From sequence record MZ234021.1: a stretch of 40,233 nucleotides of DNA. One strand, given 5' to 3'. Under the pieces are notes generated by a model. That model did no database searches. It saw only the letters and a program-made list of their open reading frames with translations, and was not told the DNA's origin. A program made the position numbers and the translations under genes. Positions 3,001 through 35,859 of the stretch are shown here, in pieces. The first letter of the stretch is position 1. Each line of letters opens with the position of its first letter. This DNA is from Escherichia phage vB_EcoP-101118UKE1.

Positions 3001-3303
3001 CTACCTCGTTCTCCTACAGATAAGCCTGAGCGTGCCATCGCGTATGGTGCAGCTACAAGTGACCCTGTGATGAATGTTGTTGGTAACTTCTTGGAGCAGG
3101 TTCCAGCTTTCGGATATGCTGCTAACGTTGGCGCTTCGGCTTACAACTTGGCTGGCTACCTCAAGGCTGATACTCGTGTCAACGAGCGTGACTACATGAC
3201 CGGGATGTATAATACGTTCCGTGAACTGGTTCCGAACGACCCCATTACCCAGAAGCTGCTGCTTGGAACGTTTGAGGAGCAAGGCATCCACATCAAGGAC
3301 TAA
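1..3303 (+). CDS. Internal virion (ejection) protein gp16, C-terminal 1100 aa; gene is split by the window boundary and continues from 39649..40233
   Basis: Long ORF colinear with T7 gp16 from about residue 220 onward (e.g. RSTWFGFG, TGGSP, VRSPTGMQSGASGK, GTYVPHVY, MDLWRM); stop TAA 3301-3303. Confidence 0.9.
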   Translation: MQEREDRSTWFGFGAATEAEVKNSMVGVAIRAGQTEDSLDVIGDVFNPTRWNNHKWSREELDQIRNSGVLPQYYGVITGGSPQNLTELINLALENQKLDQEKAKAGTGAQLAAGVIGAGVDPLTYVPIAGQVGKGGKLANKMFTVAAQSGALAGASEIARTSVAGGDAHVAEAIMGGALFGGGMTAIGDAIGKALGKSTNEFAGPATRLEARETARNVDGQDLSRMPIREGEETFSHQGVKFADVPNEPGSVRLEDGSILIGENPLNPKTRQVFDEVIEPERAAAGVNLGGLTEIGLKLLRSENPEIRGVAADLVRSPTGMQSGASGKIGTTASDVFERLRAVDHRFYNDIDDAVTEALKDPYFQTAFWRDSGAFRQDIYQRVSMAIEDGSGNLKAELTPGELKVYDLLKNQFDAKREMMENPAMFGRPDAQSIFPGSRFKGTYVPHVYSNQMKELYIKELGSPEALQEAIKKSWLTSYASRPEVKKRVDEALLEADPTLTPEGLAAAVDKYANDKAYGISHTEQFERSSVMEENINGLVGLENNSFLEARNLFDSDMSIVLPNGQTFSVNNLREWDMDKIVPAYNRRVNGDIAIMAGTGKTTKEMKDLVETMMNKAGDDGKLKGEVSTLRDTLKILTGRARRDGADDAAFATVMRTMTDLSFFAKNAYMGVQNLTEIGGMLARGNVRAMLHGVPIFRDLAFRNKKVGASEIKDLHNVIFGKELDDSIRPSKQDVIDRLRSYSDLGRGTATALGTAKYYTGELAVRSPFTKVLNGTTNYLLDAGRQGFLSDIVEHSLTGSKRKFDDRWLKTAGISDEQWSGIKSLIRESVTRGPDGKYTIKDKKAFSQDPRAMDLWRMGDTIADETLLRPHKLSNMDAKAYGPLAKTVLQFKNFVIKSINGRTMRTFYNATKNNRAIDAALSTVMSMGLAGIYYMAQAHVKAYAMQDGRDRDYLKQALDPTMIGYAALSRSSHLGGLLGVANILGGIAGYEDTKMLRSSILPRSPTDKPERAIAYGAATSDPVMNVVGNFLEQVPAFGYAANVGASAYNLAGYLKADTRVNERDYMTGMYNTFRELVPNDPITQKLLLGTFEEQGIHIKD

Positions 3304-3321
3304 ACTATCACTATAGGAAAC
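3299..3321 (+). promoter_or_regulatory. Phage RNAP promoter (phi17-type), +1 G at 3316
   Basis: ACTAAACTATCACTATA/GGAAAC; one of eleven copies of the core ACTATCACTATAGG. Confidence 0.8.
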
Positions 3322-3367
3322 TGGAGGCGCTACCATAGGTCTCCATTTAAATCACAAAGGAGGCATA

Positions 3368-5548
3368 ATGTCCACGATTACACAATTCCCTTCAGGAAAC
3401 ACTCAGTACAGGATTGAGTTCGACTACCTAGCCAGAACGTTTGTTGTTGTTACGCTGGTGAATAGCTCTAACCCTACCCTGAACCGTGTACTGGAAGTTG
3501 GTCGAGATTACCGATTCCTTAATCCAACGATGATTGAGATGTTGGCTGACCAATCAGGTTTCGACATCGTTCGTATTCACCGTCAGACTGGAACTGACTT
3601 AGTGGTAGACTTCAGGAATGGCTCAGTGTTGACAGCTAGTGACCTGACCAATTCAGAGCTTCAGGCTATCCATATTGCAGAAGAAGGTCGAGACCAAACG
3701 GTTGACTTAGCGAAGGAATATGCCGATGCTGCTGGCAGCTCTGCTGGCAACGCTAAGGATAGCGAGGACGAAGCACGCCGAATCACTGCGAGTATCAAGG
3801 CAGCTGGTAAAATTGGCTATATTACCCGTCGCTCCTTCGAGAAAGGCTTCAACGTTACAACATGGAACGAGGTCCTGCTATGGGAAGAGGATGGTGATTA
3901 TTACCGCTGGGATGGTACGCTTCCAAAGAACGTTCCCGCTGGTTCAACTCCTGAATCATCTGGTGGTATTGGGCTGAGTGCGTGGGTTAGTGTTGGTGAT
4001 GCGTCACTTAGAGCAAACCTGTCTGATAGTGATGGCGCTAAATACATAGGAAGTGGAGAAAGGACATTACTTGAGCACAACAATGATGTTTTGCACTCAA
4101 AAGACTTTCCAACACTGCAGGCAGCTATAGATGCATCTTTGCAAAAAAATGATCTACTGGTGTCTCCTGGCAATTATACTGAAAAAGTTACTATTGGAAA
4201 CGCGCAGTTAAAAGGTGTTGGCGGGGCCACGGTACTAAAAACTCCGGCAGACTTTACAAACACTGTTCAGGTTAATTTAGCTACACCTCATTGGCAATTC
4301 CGCCATAGTGGTGGTTTTGCTATAGATGGTTCCGGGACAACCGGGGCCGTAGGTATTAGTTTTGACCCGTCAGACCAATATTCCGGACGTCATAATTTTA
4401 GTGATGTATACATCCACAACATCAACAAGGCCATTCAGAAGCCTTCCGGGAACATCGGCAATACTTGGAGAAATATTGGGATATCTACGTGTGATTGGGG
4501 GTATTACGCGATTAGTGGCTCAGAGATGCATTGCGGGGCCGATACCCTCTACAATATCCACTTCGATGGCATCTCCACCTATGCAGTCTATCTAAACGGC
4601 ACTGTCGATAATGGCGGGGGGGGCGCATGGTGGCTTAAAGACTCCATTATTGAGGCTTCCGGAGGTGGCGGGATATACTTAAAAAGTAAATCGGGCGACT
4701 GTCCTACATCTCCATGCGGGGTATCCAATATATGGATGGAAGCGATCGCAACATCACCGGCTGTTCAGGTAGACGGCGTGGCGCAAAAACCGCGAGTTCT
4801 CAAGTTGGTAGACACAGCGATATTCTTTGCTGAGTATTCTTATCTCAACAACATCGAGCTATCCAACTCCAACTTAGTAACTTATGGTTGCCGTTTTGAC
4901 AACGCTGATGGCAATCAGGATATTGTCGTGGATGCACAAAGCACCATTGTAGCCCATGACGTGTATTTAAACGGCAGTTCTGGAAAGGACGTTATTGTGG
5001 AGTCCGTCGCATCGCAATCTGCAACGATAGCTACCACAAACTTATCTCTGAGGGGCAACTTAACAAGAGGGAGAGTATTTAATACGCCGACAGGGAATAA
5101 ATTAATGGCTATCACATTTGACTCAGGTAGCTATAATTTTTCTGGCAGCGGCACCGTTAACGGTTCGACTGTATCTGACGGACTTCACGCCGCTACATGT
5201 ACCGAATTTTCATTCCCCGGAGCCGGTTTATATGAAATGGTAGCGACAAGAACAACCATTACATCCGGTAGATGGTACGTGTGGGGAGTTAACTCACGCC
5301 TACAATCTGGCTCGGCGGATATTAGTATAACGTCAGGTATTACCATGGGTAGTGTTTACACAAAGCAGGGGGAGTGGATTAGCACTTTCGGTGTAGGAAA
5401 GGCATCTACCACTGGCACTGTAGCGCTATACGTTTCCACAGGAGGAGGTTCGGGAGCTACGGTCAGATTCAGTGACTTTTTCATCGCTGAGTTTACGACG
5501 CAAGCTCAGGCTTTATCTTTCGCCAATTCAAGGATGTCGTTATCATAA
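3368..5548 (+). CDS. Tail fiber / tailspike (gp17-like N-terminal adaptor, beta-helix-like C-terminal region)
   Basis: AAAGGAGG RBS 3356-3363; N-terminal ~150 aa resemble T7 gp17 (EFDYLARTFVVVTL, DYRF, LVDFRNGSVL, IAEEGRD); remainder unrelated to T7 fiber, Gly/Asn/Ser/Thr-rich with repetitive strand-like segments. Confidence 0.85.
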   Translation: MSTITQFPSGNTQYRIEFDYLARTFVVVTLVNSSNPTLNRVLEVGRDYRFLNPTMIEMLADQSGFDIVRIHRQTGTDLVVDFRNGSVLTASDLTNSELQAIHIAEEGRDQTVDLAKEYADAAGSSAGNAKDSEDEARRITASIKAAGKIGYITRRSFEKGFNVTTWNEVLLWEEDGDYYRWDGTLPKNVPAGSTPESSGGIGLSAWVSVGDASLRANLSDSDGAKYIGSGERTLLEHNNDVLHSKDFPTLQAAIDASLQKNDLLVSPGNYTEKVTIGNAQLKGVGGATVLKTPADFTNTVQVNLATPHWQFRHSGGFAIDGSGTTGAVGISFDPSDQYSGRHNFSDVYIHNINKAIQKPSGNIGNTWRNIGISTCDWGYYAISGSEMHCGADTLYNIHFDGISTYAVYLNGTVDNGGGGAWWLKDSIIEASGGGGIYLKSKSGDCPTSPCGVSNIWMEAIATSPAVQVDGVAQKPRVLKLVDTAIFFAEYSYLNNIELSNSNLVTYGCRFDNADGNQDIVVDAQSTIVAHDVYLNGSSGKDVIVESVASQSATIATTNLSLRGNLTRGRVFNTPTGNKLMAITFDSGSYNFSGSGTVNGSTVSDGLHAATCTEFSFPGAGLYEMVATRTTITSGRWYVWGVNSRLQSGSADISITSGITMGSVYTKQGEWISTFGVGKASTTGTVALYVSTGGGSGATVRFSDFFIAEFTTQAQALSFANSRMSLS

Positions 5549-8989: not shown

Positions 8990-9169
8990 ACCCCCGGTTA
9001 CTTATAGTATTACTGTAGTGAATATACATATGCAGACTTTATGCAAGACCTTAGGAGGCAGACTCCGAGTTCTTACCTAAGGCTTGCACCGATGGAAGGA
9101 GGGTGATATTAATCATAATCCCTCCAATACAGATAGTCACCGACCATAGATACAGGAGGTATGTAGCAT

Positions 9170-9328
9170 ATGGCAAAGACCAAAGCTGTACTTAAAGCTC
9201 TGGCGACCAATCGAGCTACATACAGGTTTCTTGCTGCTGTTCTACTTGCTGCTGGCGTTACTGCTGGAAGTCAGTGGGTCGGGTGGGTCGAGACTCTCGT
9301 ATGTTCTCTGGTCTCTCAGTGTAATTAA
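9170..9328 (+). CDS. Small putative membrane protein (52 aa) in gp19.5 position
   Basis: AGGAGG RBS 9154-9159, ATG 9170, hydrophobic FLAAVLLAAGVTAG segment; not in the ORF track (<60 aa). Confidence 0.4.
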   Translation: MAKTKAVLKALATNRATYRFLAAVLLAAGVTAGSQWVGWVETLVCSLVSQCN

Positions 9329-9361
9329 CGCAATCATGGTAACGATTCATGAGCGGAAGAC

Positions 9362-9404
9362 CTAAGGTCAGTACGTGGATAAAGACTCACTATACTGACC
9401 TTAG
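9362..9404 (+). repeat. 12-bp perfect inverted repeat enclosing a T7-type promoter-like motif, ~170 bp before the terminal repeat
   Basis: CTAAGGTCAGTA 9362-9373 and TACTGACCTTAG 9393-9404; spacer contains AAAGACTCACTATA. Confidence 0.6.
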
Positions 9405-9499
9405 CTACTGTAGTCAAGGACTTTAGGTAACACCATTCAGGCTCTCACCTCTGGTCTACCTACTGATTGGTTCACTGGTCGTCATCCGATGGTCTTAGA

Positions 9500-9521
9500 C
9501 CTACGGTCCTTGACCTACAGT
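9500..9521 (+). repeat. Short CCTAC(A/G)GT repeats flanking the terminal repeat (right-end side)
   Basis: CCTACGGT 9500-9507 and CCTACAGT 9514-9521. Confidence 0.5.
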
Positions 9522-9574
9522 AGCTGGTTCCTAAGGAGGGACGATGAGTTTTGGACCAAAAGTTTGAGACCACA

Positions 9575-9755
9575 TCTCACAGTTCAAGAACCTCAAGTCT
9601 CCCCCATAGGCCCTCTTTCAGTCCAGACCAAAGGCCCTACCCCAGTCTATCATAAGGTTAGACCGATGGTCAAGACTTCAGGTCAACGATAGGTTGTGGC
9701 TATGGCTTAGGGAAGGACGATAGGTTGGGACTATGGGTCTGTCTCTGAGTCTCTA
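9575..9755 (+). repeat. Probable terminal repeat (single collapsed copy) containing the physical genome ends; boundaries approximate
   Basis: Begins TCTCACAG...CCCCCATAGG like the T7 left terminus; ends near GTCTCTGAGTCTCT followed by ATCTGTA (T7 has ATCTGTT concatemer-junction pause motif). Confidence 0.4.
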
Positions 9756-9770
9756 TCTGTATAACCATAG

Positions 9771-9861
9771 GTCCTACAACCTACAGTCCTACAACCTACA
9801 GTCTAACTAACCTACAGTATCAACCATAAGACACCAACACCTACGGTCATAGACCCACAGT
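9771..9861 (+). repeat. Array of CCTAC(A/G)GT-type direct repeats flanking the terminal repeat (left-end side), includes a 16-bp tandem duplication
   Basis: GTCCTACAACCTACAG twice in tandem (9771-9802), CCTACAGT 9811-9818, CCTACGGT 9840-9847, CCCACAGT 9854-9861; analogous to T7 CCTAAAG arrays. Confidence 0.6.
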
Positions 9862-9972
9862 TAATAGACACAAAGCTATAGACTTAAGGTCTTAAACATG
9901 TTAGTCAAAGACTATATCCTATTACACCATGGGGCCGACGATAGCTTAATCAATATTATTTAAGATTACCTA

Positions 9973-10002
9973 TTGACTACAGGTCCAGACTATGGCTTAA
10001 TA
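9973..10002 (+). promoter_or_regulatory. Putative host sigma70 early promoter (A1-like)
   Basis: TTGACT 9973-9978, 17-18 nt spacer, weak -10 (CTTAAT/TTAATA); aligns with T7 A1 region as I recall it. Confidence 0.4.
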
Positions 10003-10113
10003 GCTTCCGTCAACACGACACGGCAACAACCGGATAGTGAAGACGCCGGGTCATCCCGGTTAAGTAGACAGCCTGATAAGTCATACGAACAACAGGCAGA
10101 TGACAGAAAGTAG

Positions 10114-10143
10114 TTGACAAGATGTACCGACTTAAAGTAGTAT
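10114..10143 (+). promoter_or_regulatory. Putative host sigma70 early promoter (A2/A3-like)
   Basis: TTGACA 10114-10119, 18-nt spacer, TAGTAT 10138-10143; flanking sequence resembles T7 A3 region. Confidence 0.5.
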
Positions 10144-10272
10144 GTACCACATCAACACGAAACAACGGTGACGACCAACACTGAAACGGTCTACCTGAAG
10201 TCCTCTGACTGAAGGGAATGCTCTTTAACAATCTGGATAAACTCTTAATGTGCGCCGATAGCGACTAACTAC

Positions 10273-10302
10273 AGGGCCTTTGAGTCTACATCTGAAGGCC
10301 CT
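10273..10302 (+). promoter_or_regulatory. Putative RNase III processing hairpin (R0.3-like) before first early gene
   Basis: AGGGCCTT 10273-10280 / AAGGCCCT 10295-10302 perfect stem; followed by the GGCCCTGACTGATAGTCACTAAC box. Confidence 0.5.
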
Positions 10303-10335
10303 GACTGATAGTCACTAACTTAAAGGATGGACACT

Positions 10336-10581
10336 ATGAAACACTTAAGCACAATCACTAATCGCAATGAAGTATTCGTGAACACTAAAGGTTATGCGTG
10401 GATTCAGCTTAAAGAGATGACAGGAGCGCGTCACCGTGTGGTAGTTCGCAAGGTATCAAGCAAGCAGTTCAGCAACTACAGCGTCGATACTGTGCGTATA
10501 GACAACGAGACATACCTGATAGACTCGCAGATAACCGTGAGTCCTACAGTGGGCGTCTCAGCTCCTTATTTCGCTAACTGA
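10336..10581 (+). CDS. Hypothetical early protein (first gene after the early promoters)
   Basis: ORF 10327..10581; second ATG 10336 has better spacing from AAAGGATGG; preceded by an RNase III-type hairpin; no recognisable homolog. Confidence 0.5.
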   Translation: MKHLSTITNRNEVFVNTKGYAWIQLKEMTGARHRVVVRKVSSKQFSNYSVDTVRIDNETYLIDSQITVSPTVGVSAPYFAN

Positions 10582-10594
10582 GAGTGATTAACTA

Positions 10595-10620
10595 CAGGTC
10601 GTTAGACTGATAGCGGCCTG
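10595..10620 (+). promoter_or_regulatory. Putative RNase III processing hairpin before Ocr gene
   Basis: CAGGTC / GGCCTG stem; followed by GGCCTGACTGATAGTCACTAAC box 10615-10636. Confidence 0.45.
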
Positions 10621-10664
10621 ACTGATAGTCACTAACACATAATTAACTTTGAGAGGATATAACT

Positions 10665-11168
10665 ATGGAACGTAATGCTAACGCATACTATGAGCTGCTG
10701 GCTGCAACCGTTGAGGCATTTATCGAGCGTATTCAGTGCGACCACCTGACTAAAGATGACGACTACAGCGCTGCGCTGCATGAGGTCGTAGACGGTCAGG
10801 TTCCACACTATTACCACGAGATTTTCATGGTGATGGCTGCTGATGGTATAGACAACGAGTTCGAAGACTCTGGGATGATACCTGAAACCAAGGACGTAAC
10901 GCGTATCCTACAAGCTCGCATCTATGAGGCACTTTATAACGACGTGTCTAATAGCTTGGATGTAGTCTGGTTTGAGGATGAAGAGGCAGACGAAGAGGAT
11001 GAATATTGGGTAGTTGACGCTAAAACAGGCGCAATAATTGTGCAAGCTGTAGCTCTTGAGGTCGCTACTGCATGTGCCAAGGTTAACTATGCGGCAGGTC
11101 GCCACCTTCAGGTGGAAGACATCAATGATAACGTAGTGTTTGACCCTGCTGCTGAGGACTGCGAGTGA
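10665..11168 (+). CDS. Ocr-like anti-restriction DNA-mimic protein (gp0.3) with ~50-aa C-terminal extension
   Basis: GAGAGGA RBS; VPHYYHEIFMVMAADGIDNEFEDSGMIPETKDVTRILQARIYE closely matches T7 Ocr; acidic tract then extra 50 aa absent from 117-aa T7 Ocr. Confidence 0.85.
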   Translation: MERNANAYYELLAATVEAFIERIQCDHLTKDDDYSAALHEVVDGQVPHYYHEIFMVMAADGIDNEFEDSGMIPETKDVTRILQARIYEALYNDVSNSLDVVWFEDEEADEEDEYWVVDAKTGAIIVQAVALEVATACAKVNYAAGRHLQVEDINDNVVFDPAAEDCE

Positions 11169-11324
11169 TGGTAACTTATGGCCTCTGCCAGCACCACGTC
11201 ACTAACGCCCGGCTTATGGTCAAGACCGGGCAGTTAGACCACGATTGGGCTATGCGTCTCTTGAAAGTGGTCTACAGGAGACGCAAGCGTATACACGACA
11301 GTTTACACGCTAAGTGACAGACTA

Positions 11325-11348
11325 CAGGTCATCAATGCTGGTGGCCTG
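11325..11348 (+). promoter_or_regulatory. Putative RNase III processing hairpin before 11381 gene
   Basis: CAGGTCAT 11325-11332 / GTGGCCTG 11341-11348; followed by GGCCTGACTGATAGTCATTAAC box 11343-11364. Confidence 0.45.
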
Positions 11349-11380
11349 ACTGATAGTCATTAACAACTGAGAGGGAAGAT

Positions 11381-11608
11381 ATGAACACAATCACTGGTGC
11401 CATAACCAAAGGTTTTCGAGCAATTTTCGGTGAAACGCAAGAAGTATGCACCAATCATAAATTCGTACTTTCTTGCGTAGCAGGTGACGAGTTTGACGGG
11501 TTCGATAAACTGGTGGTTTGCGACCATTGCGGACAAGAGGCTATCCAACACTCAAACGGTAAATTTGAATTAATAGACGATAGCCTTACAGAAGGAGACG
11601 GCGAGTAA
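11381..11608 (+). CDS. Hypothetical small early protein with four Cys (possible Zn-ribbon), acidic C-terminus
   Basis: 75 aa, GAGGGAAG RBS 11371-11378; cysteines at residues 23, 32, 47 and 50 (including CDHC). Confidence 0.55.
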   Translation: MNTITGAITKGFRAIFGETQEVCTNHKFVLSCVAGDEFDGFDKLVVCDHCGQEAIQHSNGKFELIDDSLTEGDGE

Positions 11609-11681
11609 CCTAAATAAACAGGAGAGAACCAAATCATAGCTTGACCATAACACTGACGTGATGGTACTGAGTGATAGACGA

Positions 11682-11707
11682 GAGGTCATCGACTGATAGG
11701 TGGCCTC
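11682..11707 (+). promoter_or_regulatory. Putative RNase III processing hairpin
   Basis: GAGGTCAT 11682-11689 / GTGGCCTC 11700-11707, loop CGACTGATAG. Confidence 0.4.
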
Positions 11708-11740
11708 AAAGATTACCACTTACATTGATAGGAGTTAACT

Positions 11741-11845
11741 ATGAGCACTGCAATCATCTGGACTATCTCAGGCTTCGTAGCGTGGGGAATGTTTACTCTA
11801 GTCTGCAAACTACCGGTCCTTACTCAACTGTTATGGGGCTTATGA
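11741..11845 (+). CDS. Small hydrophobic peptide (34 aa)
   Basis: AGGAG RBS 11730-11734, ATG 11741; MSTAIIWTISGFVAWGMFTLVC...; stop overlaps next start. Confidence 0.35.
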   Translation: MSTAIIWTISGFVAWGMFTLVCKLPVLTQLLWGL

Positions 11846-11961
11846 CTATGAGTATCGCACTATTGATAGCCATAGGCTATGGACTTATCGCCTACGTGCT
11901 GGTGAGAGACATCAACAAAGCGCGTAAAGTCTACAAATTCAAAATATGTACGTCTGGGTAG
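11842..11961 (+). CDS. Small transmembrane peptide (39 aa)
   Basis: ATGA overlap with preceding small ORF; MTMSIALLIAIGYGLIAYVLV TM helix then basic tail; is the 3' part of the 96-aa ORF in the track. Confidence 0.35.
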   Translation: MTMSIALLIAIGYGLIAYVLVRDINKARKVYKFKICTSG

Positions 11962-12045
11962 CTGGACTGTACGTCAACCTAACGGACGATTCATGCGTAA
12001 CTTAGCGAACGTCTGGGATATAGCAACACTTGGGAGCAAACTGTA

Positions 12046-12372
12046 ATGAACAAGTCATACGGGATTAATCTGGTACACTCTATGGACGCAGACATGCAAA
12101 TGTTAAGCCTACTGGCTACCGGGTATCGTCACGGAACGTCAAGTCACTCCGCACGTCAACAGCAGGAGCGGGACCGGGTACTGCAAGCAAGACTCCGGGC
12201 TGAGGGCCATAAGTCCGAACTAATGTGTCTGGCGTATGGTGGACGACCAATCACTGACGATGGTAAACTTTTAGTCTCAGGCTGGAAGGCGATAGACCAA
12301 CGGTCAACCATCAAGCACACGACTCATGGTGACTTCAGTCATCTCCACGCTAACCCGCTGATATGCAAGTAA
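12046..12372 (+). CDS. Hypothetical early protein (108 aa)
   Basis: GGGAG RBS 12032-12036; occupies the position of T7 gene 0.7 but has no kinase motifs. Confidence 0.45.
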   Translation: MNKSYGINLVHSMDADMQMLSLLATGYRHGTSSHSARQQQERDRVLQARLRAEGHKSELMCLAYGGRPITDDGKLLVSGWKAIDQRSTIKHTTHGDFSHLHANPLICK

Positions 12373-12377
12373 TTCTG

Positions 12378-12400
12378 ACTTAACTATCACTATAGGACTC
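12378..12400 (+). promoter_or_regulatory. Phage RNAP promoter immediately upstream of the RNAP gene, +1 at 12395
   Basis: ACTTAACTATCACTATA/GGACTC, 75 nt before RNAP ATG. Confidence 0.7.
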
Positions 12401-12469
12401 AAGGTCTAAGACTCCAAGTGAAAGACCAAAGAGACTTTAAGTGAAAGACTAATAACAAGGACTTTAAGT

Positions 12470-15151
12470 ATGAGCGTCATCTCTATTGACAAGCACGACT
12501 TCTCTGATGTGTCGAACGCCATTGAGCCGTTTAACCTACTGGCTGACCACTACGGGCAAGACCTTGCAGTCAAACAGCTTCAGCTTGAGCACGAGGCATA
12601 CACTGAAGGCGAGCGACGTTTCATCAAGAACCTTGAGCGCCAGACCGAGCGCGGGGAACTGGCAGACAATCAGGTAGCCAAGCCTCTTATGCAGACTCTT
12701 GTTCCTAAGATTGTGCAAGCCGTCAAGGAGTGGCACGAAGGTCCAGACGGGAAGCTGTCAACCTCTCGTCCGAGCGTAGCGTTCACCATGTTGAGCACTG
12801 AAGAGAAGGCCGTAAAGGACCGCTCTTTGCGCATCTCCTGCGAATCTGCTGCGGTTATCATACTGAAGGTCATACTCTCCAAGCTGATCAAGCCTGAAGG
12901 GATACCGATTACACCGATGGCATCCGCGATAGGGCGCACACTTGAGGACGAAATCCGCTTCGGTCGCATCCGTGACAAAGAGAAAGAGCACTTCAAGAAG
13001 GCGATAGCTGATAACCTGAATAAGCGGGCCGGGGCGTCCTACAAGAAAGCCTACATGCAAGCGGTCGAGGCATCCATGCTGGAGCAAGGCCAACTGGAAG
13101 ATGCGTGGGGGACTTGGAGTCCTACAGAGGCTGTCCACGTTGGCGTCAAGATGCTTGAGATTGTCATCCAGTCAACACAACTGGTAGAGCTTAAGCGGTA
13201 CGGTGCTGGCAATGCAGCGGCTGACGTTGAGATGGTCCACCTGTCAGACTTCTGGGTCAAGAAGATGGCACAACGAGGATTCAGCCTTGCGGGTATCGCT
13301 CCAGTCTACCAGCCTTGCGTCGTTCCACCTAAGCCGTGGACCGGTGTCGTAGGAGGTGGGTACTGGGCCAAAGGACGCAGACCACTGCCACTGATTCGCT
13401 TAGGGTCTAAGTCTGCGGTGGCACGTTACGAAGACGTGTACATGCCTGAAGTCTATGACGCTGTGAATATCATCCAGAATACACCTTGGAAAGTGAACAA
13501 GAAGGTTCTGGACGTGGTGAACATGGTCGAGAAGCTGAACAACACGCCTATTGATGACATCCCTCAGATGGAACCGCTGAAGCCTGAGGACTATGCGGGT
13601 GAGACTGAAGAAGAACTCAAGGCATGGAAGAAGGCTGCTGCTGGTATCTATCGCCGCGAGAAGGCCAGACAGTCACGAAGATTGTCACTGAGCTTTATCG
13701 TCAACCAAGCGAACAAGTTCTCTCAGTTCAAGGCCATCTGGTTCCCGTATAACATGGACTGGCGTGGGCGCGTCTACGCTGTTCCGATGTTCAACCCTCA
13801 GGGTAACGACATGCAGAAGGGTCTTCTGACTCTGGCAGTCGGTAAGCCTATTGGTGCTGATGGTTTCAAATGGCTGAAGGTCCACGGTGCAAACTGCGCG
13901 GGTGTCGATAAAGTCACCTTCGAGGAGCGTATCAAGTGGGTGGAAGATAACCACGACAACATCATGGCTGCTGCTAAGGCGCCGATGGATAGTATTAAGT
14001 GGTGGGGCAAGTTAGACTCTCCGTTCTGCTTCCTAGCGTTCTGCTTCGAGTATGCTGGCGTAATGCACCACGGCTTGTCTTACTCCTGCTCGCTGCCGAT
14101 AGCGTTCGATGGGTCCTGCTCTGGGATTCAGCACTTCAGCGCTATGCTTCGCGACCACATCGGTGGACATGCAGTAAACCTGACGCCATCCGGTAAGGTC
14201 CAAGACATCTACCGAATCGTGTCTGACCGCATTGAGGAGGAGCTTAAAGTCCTACTGGTTAACGGTACGGACAACGAGATGGTAACTCACGAGGACAAGA
14301 AAACTGGTGAGATTACCGAGCGTCTCAAGCTGGGGACACGAGAGCTTGCCAGTCAGTGGCTTACCTACGGTATGTCACGAAAGGTCACTAAGCGTTCGGT
14401 CATGACTCTGGCCTACGGGTCGAAAGAGTACGGCTTCGCAGACCAAGTTTACGAGGACATCGTGATGCCAGCGATTGACTCAGGGTCTGGCGCTATGTTC
14501 ACTGAACCAAGCCAAGCATCTCGCTTCATGGCTAAGATGATTTGGGAAGCTGTGAGTGTGACCGTAGTTGCTGCGGTTGACGCGATGAAATGGCTTCAGG
14601 GTGCTGCCAAGCTGCTTGCTGCTGAAGTGAAGGACAAGAAGACTGGAGAAATCCTGAAGCCTTGTCTTCCGGTACACTGGGTCACACCTGATGGTTTCCC
14701 TGTCTGGCAGGAATACCGCAAGAAGGACACCACTCGTCTGAACCTGATGTTCTTAGGGTCATTCAACCTTCAGCCTACCGTCAACAAAGGCACGAAGAAA
14801 GAGCTGGACAAGCACAAGCAGGAGTCAGGCATTAGCCCGAACTTCGTCCACTCACAAGATGGTAGCCACCTCCGCAAGACTGTAGTCCACACGCATCGCA
14901 AGTACGGCGTGATGTCATTCGCAGTGATTCACGATAGCTTCGGGACCATCCCGGCTGACGCTGAGTATCTGTTCCGTGGAGTCCGTGAGACGATGGTCGA
15001 GACCTACCGCGACAACGATGTGCTGCTTGACTTCTACGAGCAGTTTGAATACCAGCTTCACGAGAGCCAGAGAGACAAGTTGCCTGAGCTTCCGAAGAAA
15101 GGTAAACTGAATATCGAAGACATCTTGTCTTCAGACTTTGCATTCGCTTAA
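12470..15151 (+). CDS. Single-subunit DNA-directed RNA polymerase (gp1)
   Basis: 893 aa, colinear with T7/T3 RNAP throughout (PMFNPQGNDMQKGLLTLA, FCFLAFCFEYAGV, AFDGSCSGIQHFSAM, TLAYGSKEYGF, HDSFGT, C-terminal FAFA). Confidence 0.98.
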   Translation: MSVISIDKHDFSDVSNAIEPFNLLADHYGQDLAVKQLQLEHEAYTEGERRFIKNLERQTERGELADNQVAKPLMQTLVPKIVQAVKEWHEGPDGKLSTSRPSVAFTMLSTEEKAVKDRSLRISCESAAVIILKVILSKLIKPEGIPITPMASAIGRTLEDEIRFGRIRDKEKEHFKKAIADNLNKRAGASYKKAYMQAVEASMLEQGQLEDAWGTWSPTEAVHVGVKMLEIVIQSTQLVELKRYGAGNAAADVEMVHLSDFWVKKMAQRGFSLAGIAPVYQPCVVPPKPWTGVVGGGYWAKGRRPLPLIRLGSKSAVARYEDVYMPEVYDAVNIIQNTPWKVNKKVLDVVNMVEKLNNTPIDDIPQMEPLKPEDYAGETEEELKAWKKAAAGIYRREKARQSRRLSLSFIVNQANKFSQFKAIWFPYNMDWRGRVYAVPMFNPQGNDMQKGLLTLAVGKPIGADGFKWLKVHGANCAGVDKVTFEERIKWVEDNHDNIMAAAKAPMDSIKWWGKLDSPFCFLAFCFEYAGVMHHGLSYSCSLPIAFDGSCSGIQHFSAMLRDHIGGHAVNLTPSGKVQDIYRIVSDRIEEELKVLLVNGTDNEMVTHEDKKTGEITERLKLGTRELASQWLTYGMSRKVTKRSVMTLAYGSKEYGFADQVYEDIVMPAIDSGSGAMFTEPSQASRFMAKMIWEAVSVTVVAAVDAMKWLQGAAKLLAAEVKDKKTGEILKPCLPVHWVTPDGFPVWQEYRKKDTTRLNLMFLGSFNLQPTVNKGTKKELDKHKQESGISPNFVHSQDGSHLRKTVVHTHRKYGVMSFAVIHDSFGTIPADAEYLFRGVRETMVETYRDNDVLLDFYEQFEYQLHESQRDKLPELPKKGKLNIEDILSSDFAFA

Positions 15152-35809: not shown

Positions 35810-35859
35810 AAGGGCCTATAGATTTACCTTAACTATCACTATAGGGACTATAGGCCCTT
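35810..35859 (+). repeat. 12-bp perfect inverted repeat bracketing the phi13-type promoter
   Basis: AAGGGCCTATAG 35810-35821 and CTATAGGCCCTT 35848-35859. Confidence 0.6.
35827..35849 (+). promoter_or_regulatory. Phage RNAP promoter (phi13-type), +1 at 35844
   Basis: CCTTAACTATCACTATA/GGGACT, flanked by a 12-bp inverted repeat. Confidence 0.85.

Follow-up and report, generated by a model that had tools for sequence, protein, structure and literature searches.

The early region of a K1F-like Escherichia phage: a probable T7-like class I operon with the standard gene set of Kayfunavirus

The window analyzed here is the whole of sequence record MZ234021.1, from Escherichia phage vB_EcoP-101118UKE1. 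Its 40,233 bases make up the entire genome, in circularly permuted form, of a T7-like podophage that belongs to the K1F-like genus Kayfunavirus. Between its early promoter and gene 1, which encodes the single-subunit RNA polymerase, lies a series of small open reading frames (ORFs). The question raised by this locus is whether these ORFs represent a rebuilt early region harboring novel genes, as was proposed in an original prediction made from the letters of the sequence, or the usual early genes of the lineage. The region is very probably the class I (early) operon of Kayfunavirus, with a T7-like organization and the lineage's own standard gene set. The term "remodelled" is apt in relation to T7 but not within Kayfunavirus, where the layout is the standard one, as judged from the genes of K1F and from 31 related loci. 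The outcome is an annotation correction and not a new system: one early gene receives a name, as a homolog of T7 gp0.4, and that for gp0.37 needs to be marked as frameshifted. Members of the genus, K1F and LM33_P1 among them, are in use against encapsulated E. coli, both in therapy and as models.

All of the early ORFs are found on the + strand, and a purine-rich, Shine-Dalgarno (SD)-like run precedes each one listed. The ORFs described originally, encoding an 81-84-amino-acid protein, Ocr, a 75-amino-acid protein with four cysteines, peptides of 34 and 39 amino acids and a 108-amino-acid protein, were all recovered, and a further gene, for gp0.35, was found among them. The genes and gene remnants are as follows.

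10336-10581, + strand: gp0.2 homolog, 81 amino acids, basic and predicted to be beta-rich
10665-11168, + strand: Ocr (gp0.3), a DNA mimic by homology, 167 amino acids, long form; matches PF08684 at 93.3 bits (cutoff 25) over residues 8-94
11168-11317, + strand: gp0.35, 49 amino acids, candidate FtsZ inhibitor; its start overlaps the ocr stop codon in the sequence TGATG (11166-11170)
11381-11608, + strand: 75-amino-acid acidic Cys4 protein, C-X8-C-X14-C-X2-C, phrog_32657; mobile accessory early gene
11741-11845, + strand: 34-amino-acid hydrophobic peptide, positional analog of T7 gp0.5; AGGAG SD sequence 7 nucleotides upstream, ATGA coupling to gp0.37
11842-11961, + strand: gp0.37 homolog that a +1 insertion cuts to 39 amino acids, comprising a transmembrane helix and 15 further residues; phrog_2385, hydrophobic peak 2.35
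11945-12046, + strand: out-of-frame rest of gp0.37, the basic C-terminal half (...YVRLGSWTVRQPNGRFMRNLANVWDIATLGSKL); its TAA overlaps the ATG of gp0.38
12046-12372, + strand: gp0.38 homolog, 108 amino acids, basic, isoelectric point (pI) 9.3; phrog_7066, E 6e-46
12470-15151, + strand: gene 1, single-subunit RNA polymerase, 893 amino acids, the right boundary of the region; annotated as RNA polymerase in all relatives

This set corresponds one-to-one with the early genes of K1F (AM084414), with amino acid identities of 96% for gp0.2, 79% for gp0.3, 82% for gp0.35, 92% for gp0.37 once its reading frame is repaired, and 77% for gp0.38. With the exception of the 34-amino-acid ORF, all of the early ORFs are members of existing PHROGs. 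Bases 9000-12600 match Escherichia phage vB_EcoP-101136BS1 along their full length (3.6 kb) at 96.5% nucleotide identity and, at lower identity, LM33_P1 and about 400 other records, and a series of ORFs matching the region also appears in the ORF table of Hafnia phage Ca (PMC8861465). The genes can hardly be called novel, as the original prediction had it, given the homologs in K1F at 77-96% amino acid identity, the PHROG memberships, and the occurrence of gp0.38 in 221 and of the 75-amino-acid protein in 56 GenBank phage records. The genes for gp0.2, the 75-amino-acid protein, gp0.37 and gp0.38 are already catalogued Kayfunavirus early genes that are functionally uncharacterized.

Gene order and gene families are alike in K1F, LM33_P1, vB_EcoP-101136BS1 and the window, and in each case a phage promoter and gene 1 follow. 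LM33_P1 and vB_EcoP-101136BS1 carry the 75- and 34-amino-acid genes at 100% amino acid identity with the window, whereas K1F has a 55-amino-acid hydrophobic protein, gp0.36, in their place. K1F gp0.38 also differs from that of the window in its N-terminal 24 residues, and the frameshift in gp0.37 is found in the window but not in K1F, LM33_P1 or vB_EcoP-101136BS1. Gene order was surveyed across 31 related loci. In every one of them the last gene before gene 1 is that for gp0.38, and with the sole exception of CR44b it is preceded by that for gp0.37. Of the 31 loci, 23 have gp0.35 and about two thirds have Ocr, in either its long (about 167 amino acids) or its short form (about 105). The remaining genes are scattered more thinly, with gp0.2 in nine loci, K1F gp0.36 in seven, the 34-amino-acid ORF in six and the 75-amino-acid gene in five. 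The content between gp0.35 and gp0.37 is patchy, which marks this slot as a hotspot of accessory genes.

The resemblance to the class I region of T7 (genes 0.3-0.7 and 1, with RNase III sites R0.3, R0.5 and R1) is seen at several levels. Ocr is followed by a gp0.4 homolog with a one-base overlap; further on, an RNase III-type hairpin, a small hydrophobic peptide and an ATGA coupling to the next gene recall the T7 series R0.5-0.5-0.6; and the hairpin sequences of the window align with R0.5 and R1. The window differs from T7 in having the extra gene gp0.2 upstream of ocr, an Ocr extended by about 54 amino acids at its C-terminus, and a phage promoter, with no RNase III site, in front of gene 1. 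It lacks both the gp0.7 kinase and its shut-off (SO) domain, and gp0.37 and gp0.38 have no detectable homology to gp0.6 or gp0.7.

The gene that had been overlooked is that for gp0.35. Ocr was described originally as the only recognizable product of the region, a statement that missed the 49-amino-acid homolog of T7 gp0.4 encoded at 11168-11317. The protein belongs to phrog_5058 (E 4e-25) and cross-hits phrog_7202, the family of T7 gp0.4, which in turn cross-hits phrog_5058. Alignment of the two family profiles with hhalign gives a probability of 94.9% and an E value of 4.6e-8 over 41 columns, and an identical 49-amino-acid protein on three related contigs carries a precomputed match to PF26807 (Phage_T7_GP04). 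The arrangement is also that of T7, in which the end of 0.3 and the start of 0.4 share base 1278 just as ocr and gp0.35 share a base here. The ratio of nonsynonymous to synonymous polymorphism (pN/pS) in comparison with relatives is 0.13-0.56, and the gene is under purifying selection. On this evidence gp0.35 is a homolog of T7 gp0.4 and, by that homology, a candidate FtsZ inhibitor of the gp0.4 type. Such an assignment fits the mislocalization of FtsZ that has been reported on infection by K1F (PMC9372555).

Ocr itself is an acidic protein (pI 4.1) that belongs to phrog_2568 (E 8e-51) and matches the solved structure of T7 Ocr (PDB 1S7Z) over residues 11-113 with an E value of 3.6e-22. By homology it would mimic DNA and block type I restriction and the bacteriophage exclusion (BREX) system. 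Neither T7 Ocr nor any PDB sequence matches the extension of about 54 amino acids (residues ~114-167; 11003-11168). It is present in the long form of Ocr and missing from a short form of about 105-114 amino acids (as in vB_EcoP_F and CR44b), one or other of which is found in related phages, and so has the look of a separable module. In two records, LT594300 (1121-1624) and MZ398247 (1569-2072), the Ocr gene is mislabelled "Phage protein kinase" or "protein kinase", a misannotation that could mislead searches for kinases in Kayfunavirus.

Upstream of ocr, the gene for gp0.2 is best read as encoding 81 amino acids. The 84-amino-acid reading, from a start at 10327, has a poor SD sequence that is not usable, and the homolog clusters are mostly of 81 or 88 amino acids. 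Its pN/pS is about 0.17 against three of four more distant relatives, and the gene is under purifying selection.

At the other end of the operon, gp0.38 consists of a variable N-terminus, a conserved core of 83 amino acids and an invariant C-terminal motif, HTTxGDFSHLHxxPLICK. Its 143 clusters come almost entirely from phage-sized contigs no longer than 40 kb. A search of 1.84 billion representative proteins with its profile hidden Markov model (HMM) returned 13 members of the family only, and no link to another family. Comparison of the core with two relatives revealed 14 synonymous changes and one nonsynonymous change (pN/pS 0.02), and the value against a third relative is 0.09; synonymous codon variation is present even within the invariant motif. 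The gene is thus under very strong purifying selection, and it may be inferred that the motif forms a contact surface. Strongly constrained, restricted to its lineage and located before gene 1 throughout the survey, gp0.38 represents the clearest experimental target of the region.

The search for function beyond Ocr and gp0.35 was broad. Pfam, NCBIfam, PADLOC and PDB sequence searches returned nothing for gp0.2, the 75-amino-acid protein, the 34-amino-acid peptide, gp0.37 or gp0.38. Profile, structure and fold searches assigned no function to gp0.2, the 75-amino-acid protein, gp0.37 or gp0.38, and the profile searches placed none of these four in a well-characterized family, whereas gp0.35 does match one. 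The literature search found no paper that treats the function of gp0.2, gp0.35, gp0.37 or gp0.38. The suggestion that the region holds the best candidates for undescribed functions thus stands in part: the genes are real, their functions are unassigned and the early region has no kinase, but gp0.35 falls within the characterized gp0.4 family of T7. The small early products other than Ocr and gp0.35 have no enzyme-like domain or features, and from their size, position and constraint we infer that they act as binders of host proteins, for takeover or counter-defense. Among these, the 34-amino-acid peptide and gp0.37 would be anchored in the membrane. As conserved or mobile early genes, gp0.2, gp0.37, gp0.38 and the 75-amino-acid Cys4 gene are all targets worth an experiment.

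The elements that would control expression of these genes are given below. All four hairpins are intergenic.

10114-10143, + strand: sigma-70 early promoter, T7 A3-like; TTGACA-18-TAGTAT, 10 of 12 consensus positions matched
10259-10317, + strand: RNase III-type hairpin before gp0.2, a stem, internal loop and stem; -25.6 kcal/mol, z -2.95
10583-10633, + strand: RNase III-type hairpin before ocr; -23.8 kcal/mol, z -4.0, with none of 200 shuffles folding as well; aligns with T7 RNase III sites
11320-11358, + strand: RNase III-type hairpin before the 75-amino-acid gene; -20.5 kcal/mol, z -1.95; sequence nearest to T7 R1
11668-11722, + strand: RNase III-type hairpin before the 34-amino-acid gene, at the position of T7 R0.5; within a fold of -25.9 kcal/mol, z -2.31
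12379-12401, + strand: phage RNA polymerase promoter directly 5' of gene 1, CTTAACTATCACTATAGGAC; matches about nine other CTAAACTATCACTATAGG sites in the window

The physical left end of the genome lies near 9580, and gene 19.5 (52 amino acids, 9170-9328) is a gene of the right end. The site at 10114-10143 is the sole strong sigma-70 site on the + strand upstream of the early genes, and host RNA polymerase would initiate there, near 10114, as the left end enters the cell. The four hairpins, each of which folds as an upper stem of about 10 bp, an internal loop and a lower stem, have in common with T7 R0.5 and R1 the motif CTACAGG...GGCCTGACTGATAGTCAC, and by analogy with T7 they are taken to be RNase III processing sites; Rfam has no family that covers the hairpins or the region. 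Cleavage by RNase III would then yield four units from the early transcript, encoding gp0.2, Ocr with gp0.35, the 75-amino-acid protein, and the 34-amino-acid peptide with gp0.37 and gp0.38. Within units, translation would be coupled through the TGATG, ATGA and TAATG overlaps; the coupling of the 34- and 39-amino-acid ORFs proposed originally is in line with their ATGA overlap. The phage promoter would afterwards boost gene 1. In the record of CR44b, too, a promoter is annotated at the position that corresponds to 12379-12401, and PF14700 and PF00940 are found for gene 1 on the contigs of relatives. About ten copies of the CTAAACTATCACTATAGG sequence are distributed across the genome, with ACTATAG cores that start at 3310, 8978, 12389, 15710, 17577, 27230, 30069, 31056 and 35838; near 35838 and 35847 the promoter occurs as a tandem pair.

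A number of points weigh against the interpretation of the region as a T7-like early operon with genuine, functional small genes. Against the three sigma-70 sites of T7 there is only one strong site here, and shuffled sequence contains promoter-like sites at least as often. The use of the promoter, cleavage by RNase III and translation are in each case read across from T7, and the roles suggested for gp0.2, the 75-amino-acid protein, the 34-amino-acid peptide, gp0.37 and gp0.38 derive from size, charge, position and conservation alone. The AlphaFold2 (AF2) model of gp0.2 is beta-rich but of low confidence (predicted local distance difference test, pLDDT, 68), and that of gp0.38 is helical, also of low confidence (pLDDT 60), with the HTTxGDFSHLHxxPLICK motif modelled as disordered. 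Finally, the 34-amino-acid ORF has zero substitutions among four close relatives, and its coding support comes from two diverged loci only. Set beside the correspondence with K1F and the conserved gene order, these points leave the early operon of Kayfunavirus as the reading we strongly favor.

The absence of a T7-type kinase, noted in the original prediction, is borne out. Searches with tblastn using T7 gp0.7 and two other T7-like kinases gave no match anywhere in the window (best E 1.2), and no ORF in the region matches a kinase family in profile searches, including those against PHROG (gp0.7 itself belongs to phrog_2828 and PF27024). Because the kinase is missing not only from the window but also from K1F- and LM33_P1-like relatives, its absence does not reflect a recent remodelling. 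The proportion of serine, threonine and tyrosine in the pooled small early proteins was also considered as a signature of the missing kinase; at 15.3%, as opposed to 12.1% in T7, it goes in the expected direction but is too weak a signal, and it was set aside.

The T7 kinase is known to disarm many bacterial defenses, and its C-terminal domain binds DNA (PMC13645617). This anti-defense role makes worth an experiment a further proposal, that gp0.37 and gp0.38 together represent a stand-alone equivalent of the gp0.7 SO domain, forming a module for host shut-off or counter-defense that is independent of the kinase. The proposal is compatible with the early operon described above, to which it adds a specific function, and we regard it as doubtful, though it fares better than the other alternatives considered below. 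It draws on the constant place of gp0.38, and nearly constant place of gp0.37, in the 31 loci, a slot just before gene 1 that is also occupied by the SO domain; on the finding that none of 32 loci examined has gp0.37/gp0.38 together with the SO domain, even where the kinase domain is kept; on the basic character of both proteins (pI 10.8 and 9.3); and on the very strong constraint on gp0.38. Set against this, there is no detectable homology to the SO domain, with hhalign probabilities of 0.2-0.3% for gp0.38 and 2% for gp0.37. The N-terminal membrane anchor of gp0.37 is poorly suited to a role directed at DNA, and gp0.37 is broken in a phage that is apparently still viable, if the frameshift is real. 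The argument is one of position and co-distribution only. If the proposal were true, gp0.37-gp0.38 would show how a large group of coliphages that target capsules or O-antigens copes without the T7 kinase.

Direct homology of either protein to the SO domain was rejected. For gp0.38, hmmsearch gave 4.4 bits, alongside the hhalign values already quoted, in comparisons with T7 alone and with an alignment of six SO sequences. For gp0.37, only a patch of 12 residues, (R/K)xPNGxF, was aligned, and this was treated as chance. The patch, (R/K)xPNGxF...N, is located at residues ~46-57 of gp0.37 (11990-12025, in the shifted frame) and resembles the linker that precedes the SO domain in T7-like kinases, namely those of pO103, JSS1, KFSA9 and a Klebsiella phage; the resemblance may be due to chance.

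A sister lineage bears on what gp0.38 replaces. Enterobacter phage vB_EclP_26 (1235-2605) and eight IMG/VR loci encode a T7K-like kinase of 244 amino acids ahead of gp0.36, gp0.37 and gp0.38. The kinase aligns only to residues 44-219 of T7 gp0.7 and is without the C-terminal SO domain, and the lineage has a S-adenosylmethionine (SAM) hydrolase in place of Ocr. These contigs have a gp0.36-like protein and, as in the window, gp0.37 (76% amino acid identity), followed directly before gene 1 by a gp0.38-like protein whose C-terminal motif is identical. Because these loci encode both, gp0.38 does not merely substitute for the kinase; the 108-amino-acid protein, placed originally where T7 carries its kinase, is basic and precedes gene 1, but it is no simple stand-in. 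The gp0.38 relative in this lineage is only 70 amino acids long, and resembles that of the window in its last 34 or so residues only, the N-terminal two-thirds being unrelated. The C-terminal motif therefore appears to behave as an exchangeable module.

Of the genes in the variable slot, the one for the 75-amino-acid protein has the most unusual distribution. It forms only six protein clusters. Its four cysteines (C23, C32, C47 and C50) are retained in the five full-length homologs, and the protein may bind zinc; no match was found for it in Pfam, PDB or NCBIfam. Beyond podophages, it is found in siphophages of 43-45 kb (Bas70, Golestan and vB_EcoS_XY1) at 90-93% amino acid identity, in K1ind1 at 74%, and on another unrelated 43-kb contig at 71%. 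A closer comparison was made with Bas70 (siphophage MarieHeimVoegtlin), where the same protein, Bas70_0048, is encoded by the first gene of an early operon, beside a transcriptional regulator. The genes of the window and Bas70 are 87% identical in nucleotide and 93% in amino acid sequence, with 20.5 synonymous and 5.5 nonsynonymous changes (pN/pS 0.07), and the gene is under purifying selection. Bas70 differs in being an unrelated siphovirus, and in that a 166-amino-acid acidic protein, an exonuclease and a single-stranded-DNA-annealing protein are encoded after the 75-amino-acid gene. The shared segment is delimited by a 274-nucleotide blastn match between 11361-11634 of the window and 2480-2754 of Bas70, which starts at the gene's own SD sequence and stops at CAGGAGAGAAC/ACAAAT, where the next ATG of Bas70 sits. 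Its end in the window is a short flank.

11609-11634, + strand: 3' flank remnant of the cassette; contains the SD sequence of the downstream gene of Bas70, but in the window is not followed by any gene

From the Bas70 context the window thus holds just the 75-amino-acid gene and the SD sequence of the gene after it. This leftover SD sequence, without its gene, suggests a siphophage-like context as the source of the cassette, and the sharing of the gene points to recent transfer between unrelated types of phage that infect similar E. coli.

The remaining two small ORFs require more discussion. The 34-amino-acid peptide is strongly hydrophobic (grand average of hydropathy, GRAVY, 1.39); it belongs to no PHROG, and blastp, the one comparison made with T7 gp0.5, gave no match. 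The length of the ORF, 34 codons, is unchanged in CR44b (91% amino acid identity) and in a more distant locus, L035 (47% amino acid identity, with 47 of 102 nucleotides differing), and its SD sequence, stop codon and KLPV-TQ motif are conserved in both. Relatives encode gp0.37 as an ORF of 64-70 amino acids whose stop codon overlaps the start of gp0.38, and it is intact in all of those that carry it. The protein, with a pI of 10.8, is predicted to cross the membrane once and has a highly basic C-terminal domain. In the window there is AAAA at 11941-11944, where the relatives have AAA or AAC, and the extra A is absent from 30 related loci. When one A is removed, the gene becomes 100% identical in nucleotide sequence to that of LM33_P1. 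The 39-amino-acid ORF, presented originally as a natural peptide, is accordingly a truncated gp0.37, from which the nearly invariant C-terminal half (as seen across 21 loci) has been lost. No exact copy of the frameshift allele was found, for a stretch of 106 nucleotides, among 121 GenBank matches, the best of which differs by exactly one gap, nor was one found in IMG/VR. Two origins can be considered for the break: an error in sequencing the homopolymer, or a private null mutation, in which case the gene would be dispensable.

It might be argued that some of the small ORFs are chance frames or artefacts of gene calling, above all the 34-amino-acid ORF, the real gene being an 87-amino-acid gp0.37 that starts from GTG at 11784. 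The lack of a PHROG and of any substitution among the close relatives is in keeping with this suggestion, as is the calling of the 87-amino-acid ORF instead on related contigs and in the IME177 record. We consider it unlikely, in view of the survival of the 34-codon ORF with its SD sequence and stop codon in L035, despite the divergence of that locus, and in CR44b. The homologs of gp0.37 elsewhere begin with M(S/G)W... and are 64-67 amino acids long, with no conserved upstream extension, and the GTG at 11784 has no SD sequence before it. The 87-amino-acid gene model was therefore rejected in favor of the 34-amino-acid ORF plus gp0.37, since it has neither an SD sequence nor a conserved extension. 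For the other small ORFs, pN/pS values of about 0.02-0.5 exclude non-coding status. Still less credible, to the point of being very improbable, is the notion that the extra A marks a programmed or tolerated +1 frameshift site giving both a 39-amino-acid and a full-length product in the manner of T7 0.6A/0.6B, for while a product of possible frameshifting, 0.6B, is annotated at the corresponding position in T7 and the insertion sits in an A run (TTC AAA ATA), the allele is unique where a conserved recoding site would be common to relatives, and gp0.37 is not homologous to T7 gp0.6.

The preferred gene model is then that of a 34-amino-acid ORF coupled to a gp0.37 gene that is frameshifted in the window. 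The possibility that gp0.37 is a homolog of T7 gp0.6A, gp0.6B or gp0.5 was rejected on hhalign probabilities of no more than 0.3% and on PHROGs that differ without cross-hits; the label "0.6" given to this gene in the RefSeq record of K1F reflects its position only. In vB_Eco_1RS a second paralog of gp0.37, 41% identical, is found just before gp0.38 (3238-3417), and several extra small ORFs occupy the variable slot.

Two further observations concern the DNA to the left of the operon. An ORF for gp0.1 (71-72 amino acids), annotated in K1F and LM33_P1, is interrupted in the window at 9935-10150, leaving a remnant of 46 amino acids that starts with TTG (9973-10113). It overlaps the region of the sigma-70 promoter and is probably not a gene. 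Around the genome ends, positions 9480-9870 contain dense short direct repeats with units of the ACCTACAGT / CCTACGGTC type (families D3, D4 and D6), which are probably part of the terminal repeat or of a concatemer junction.

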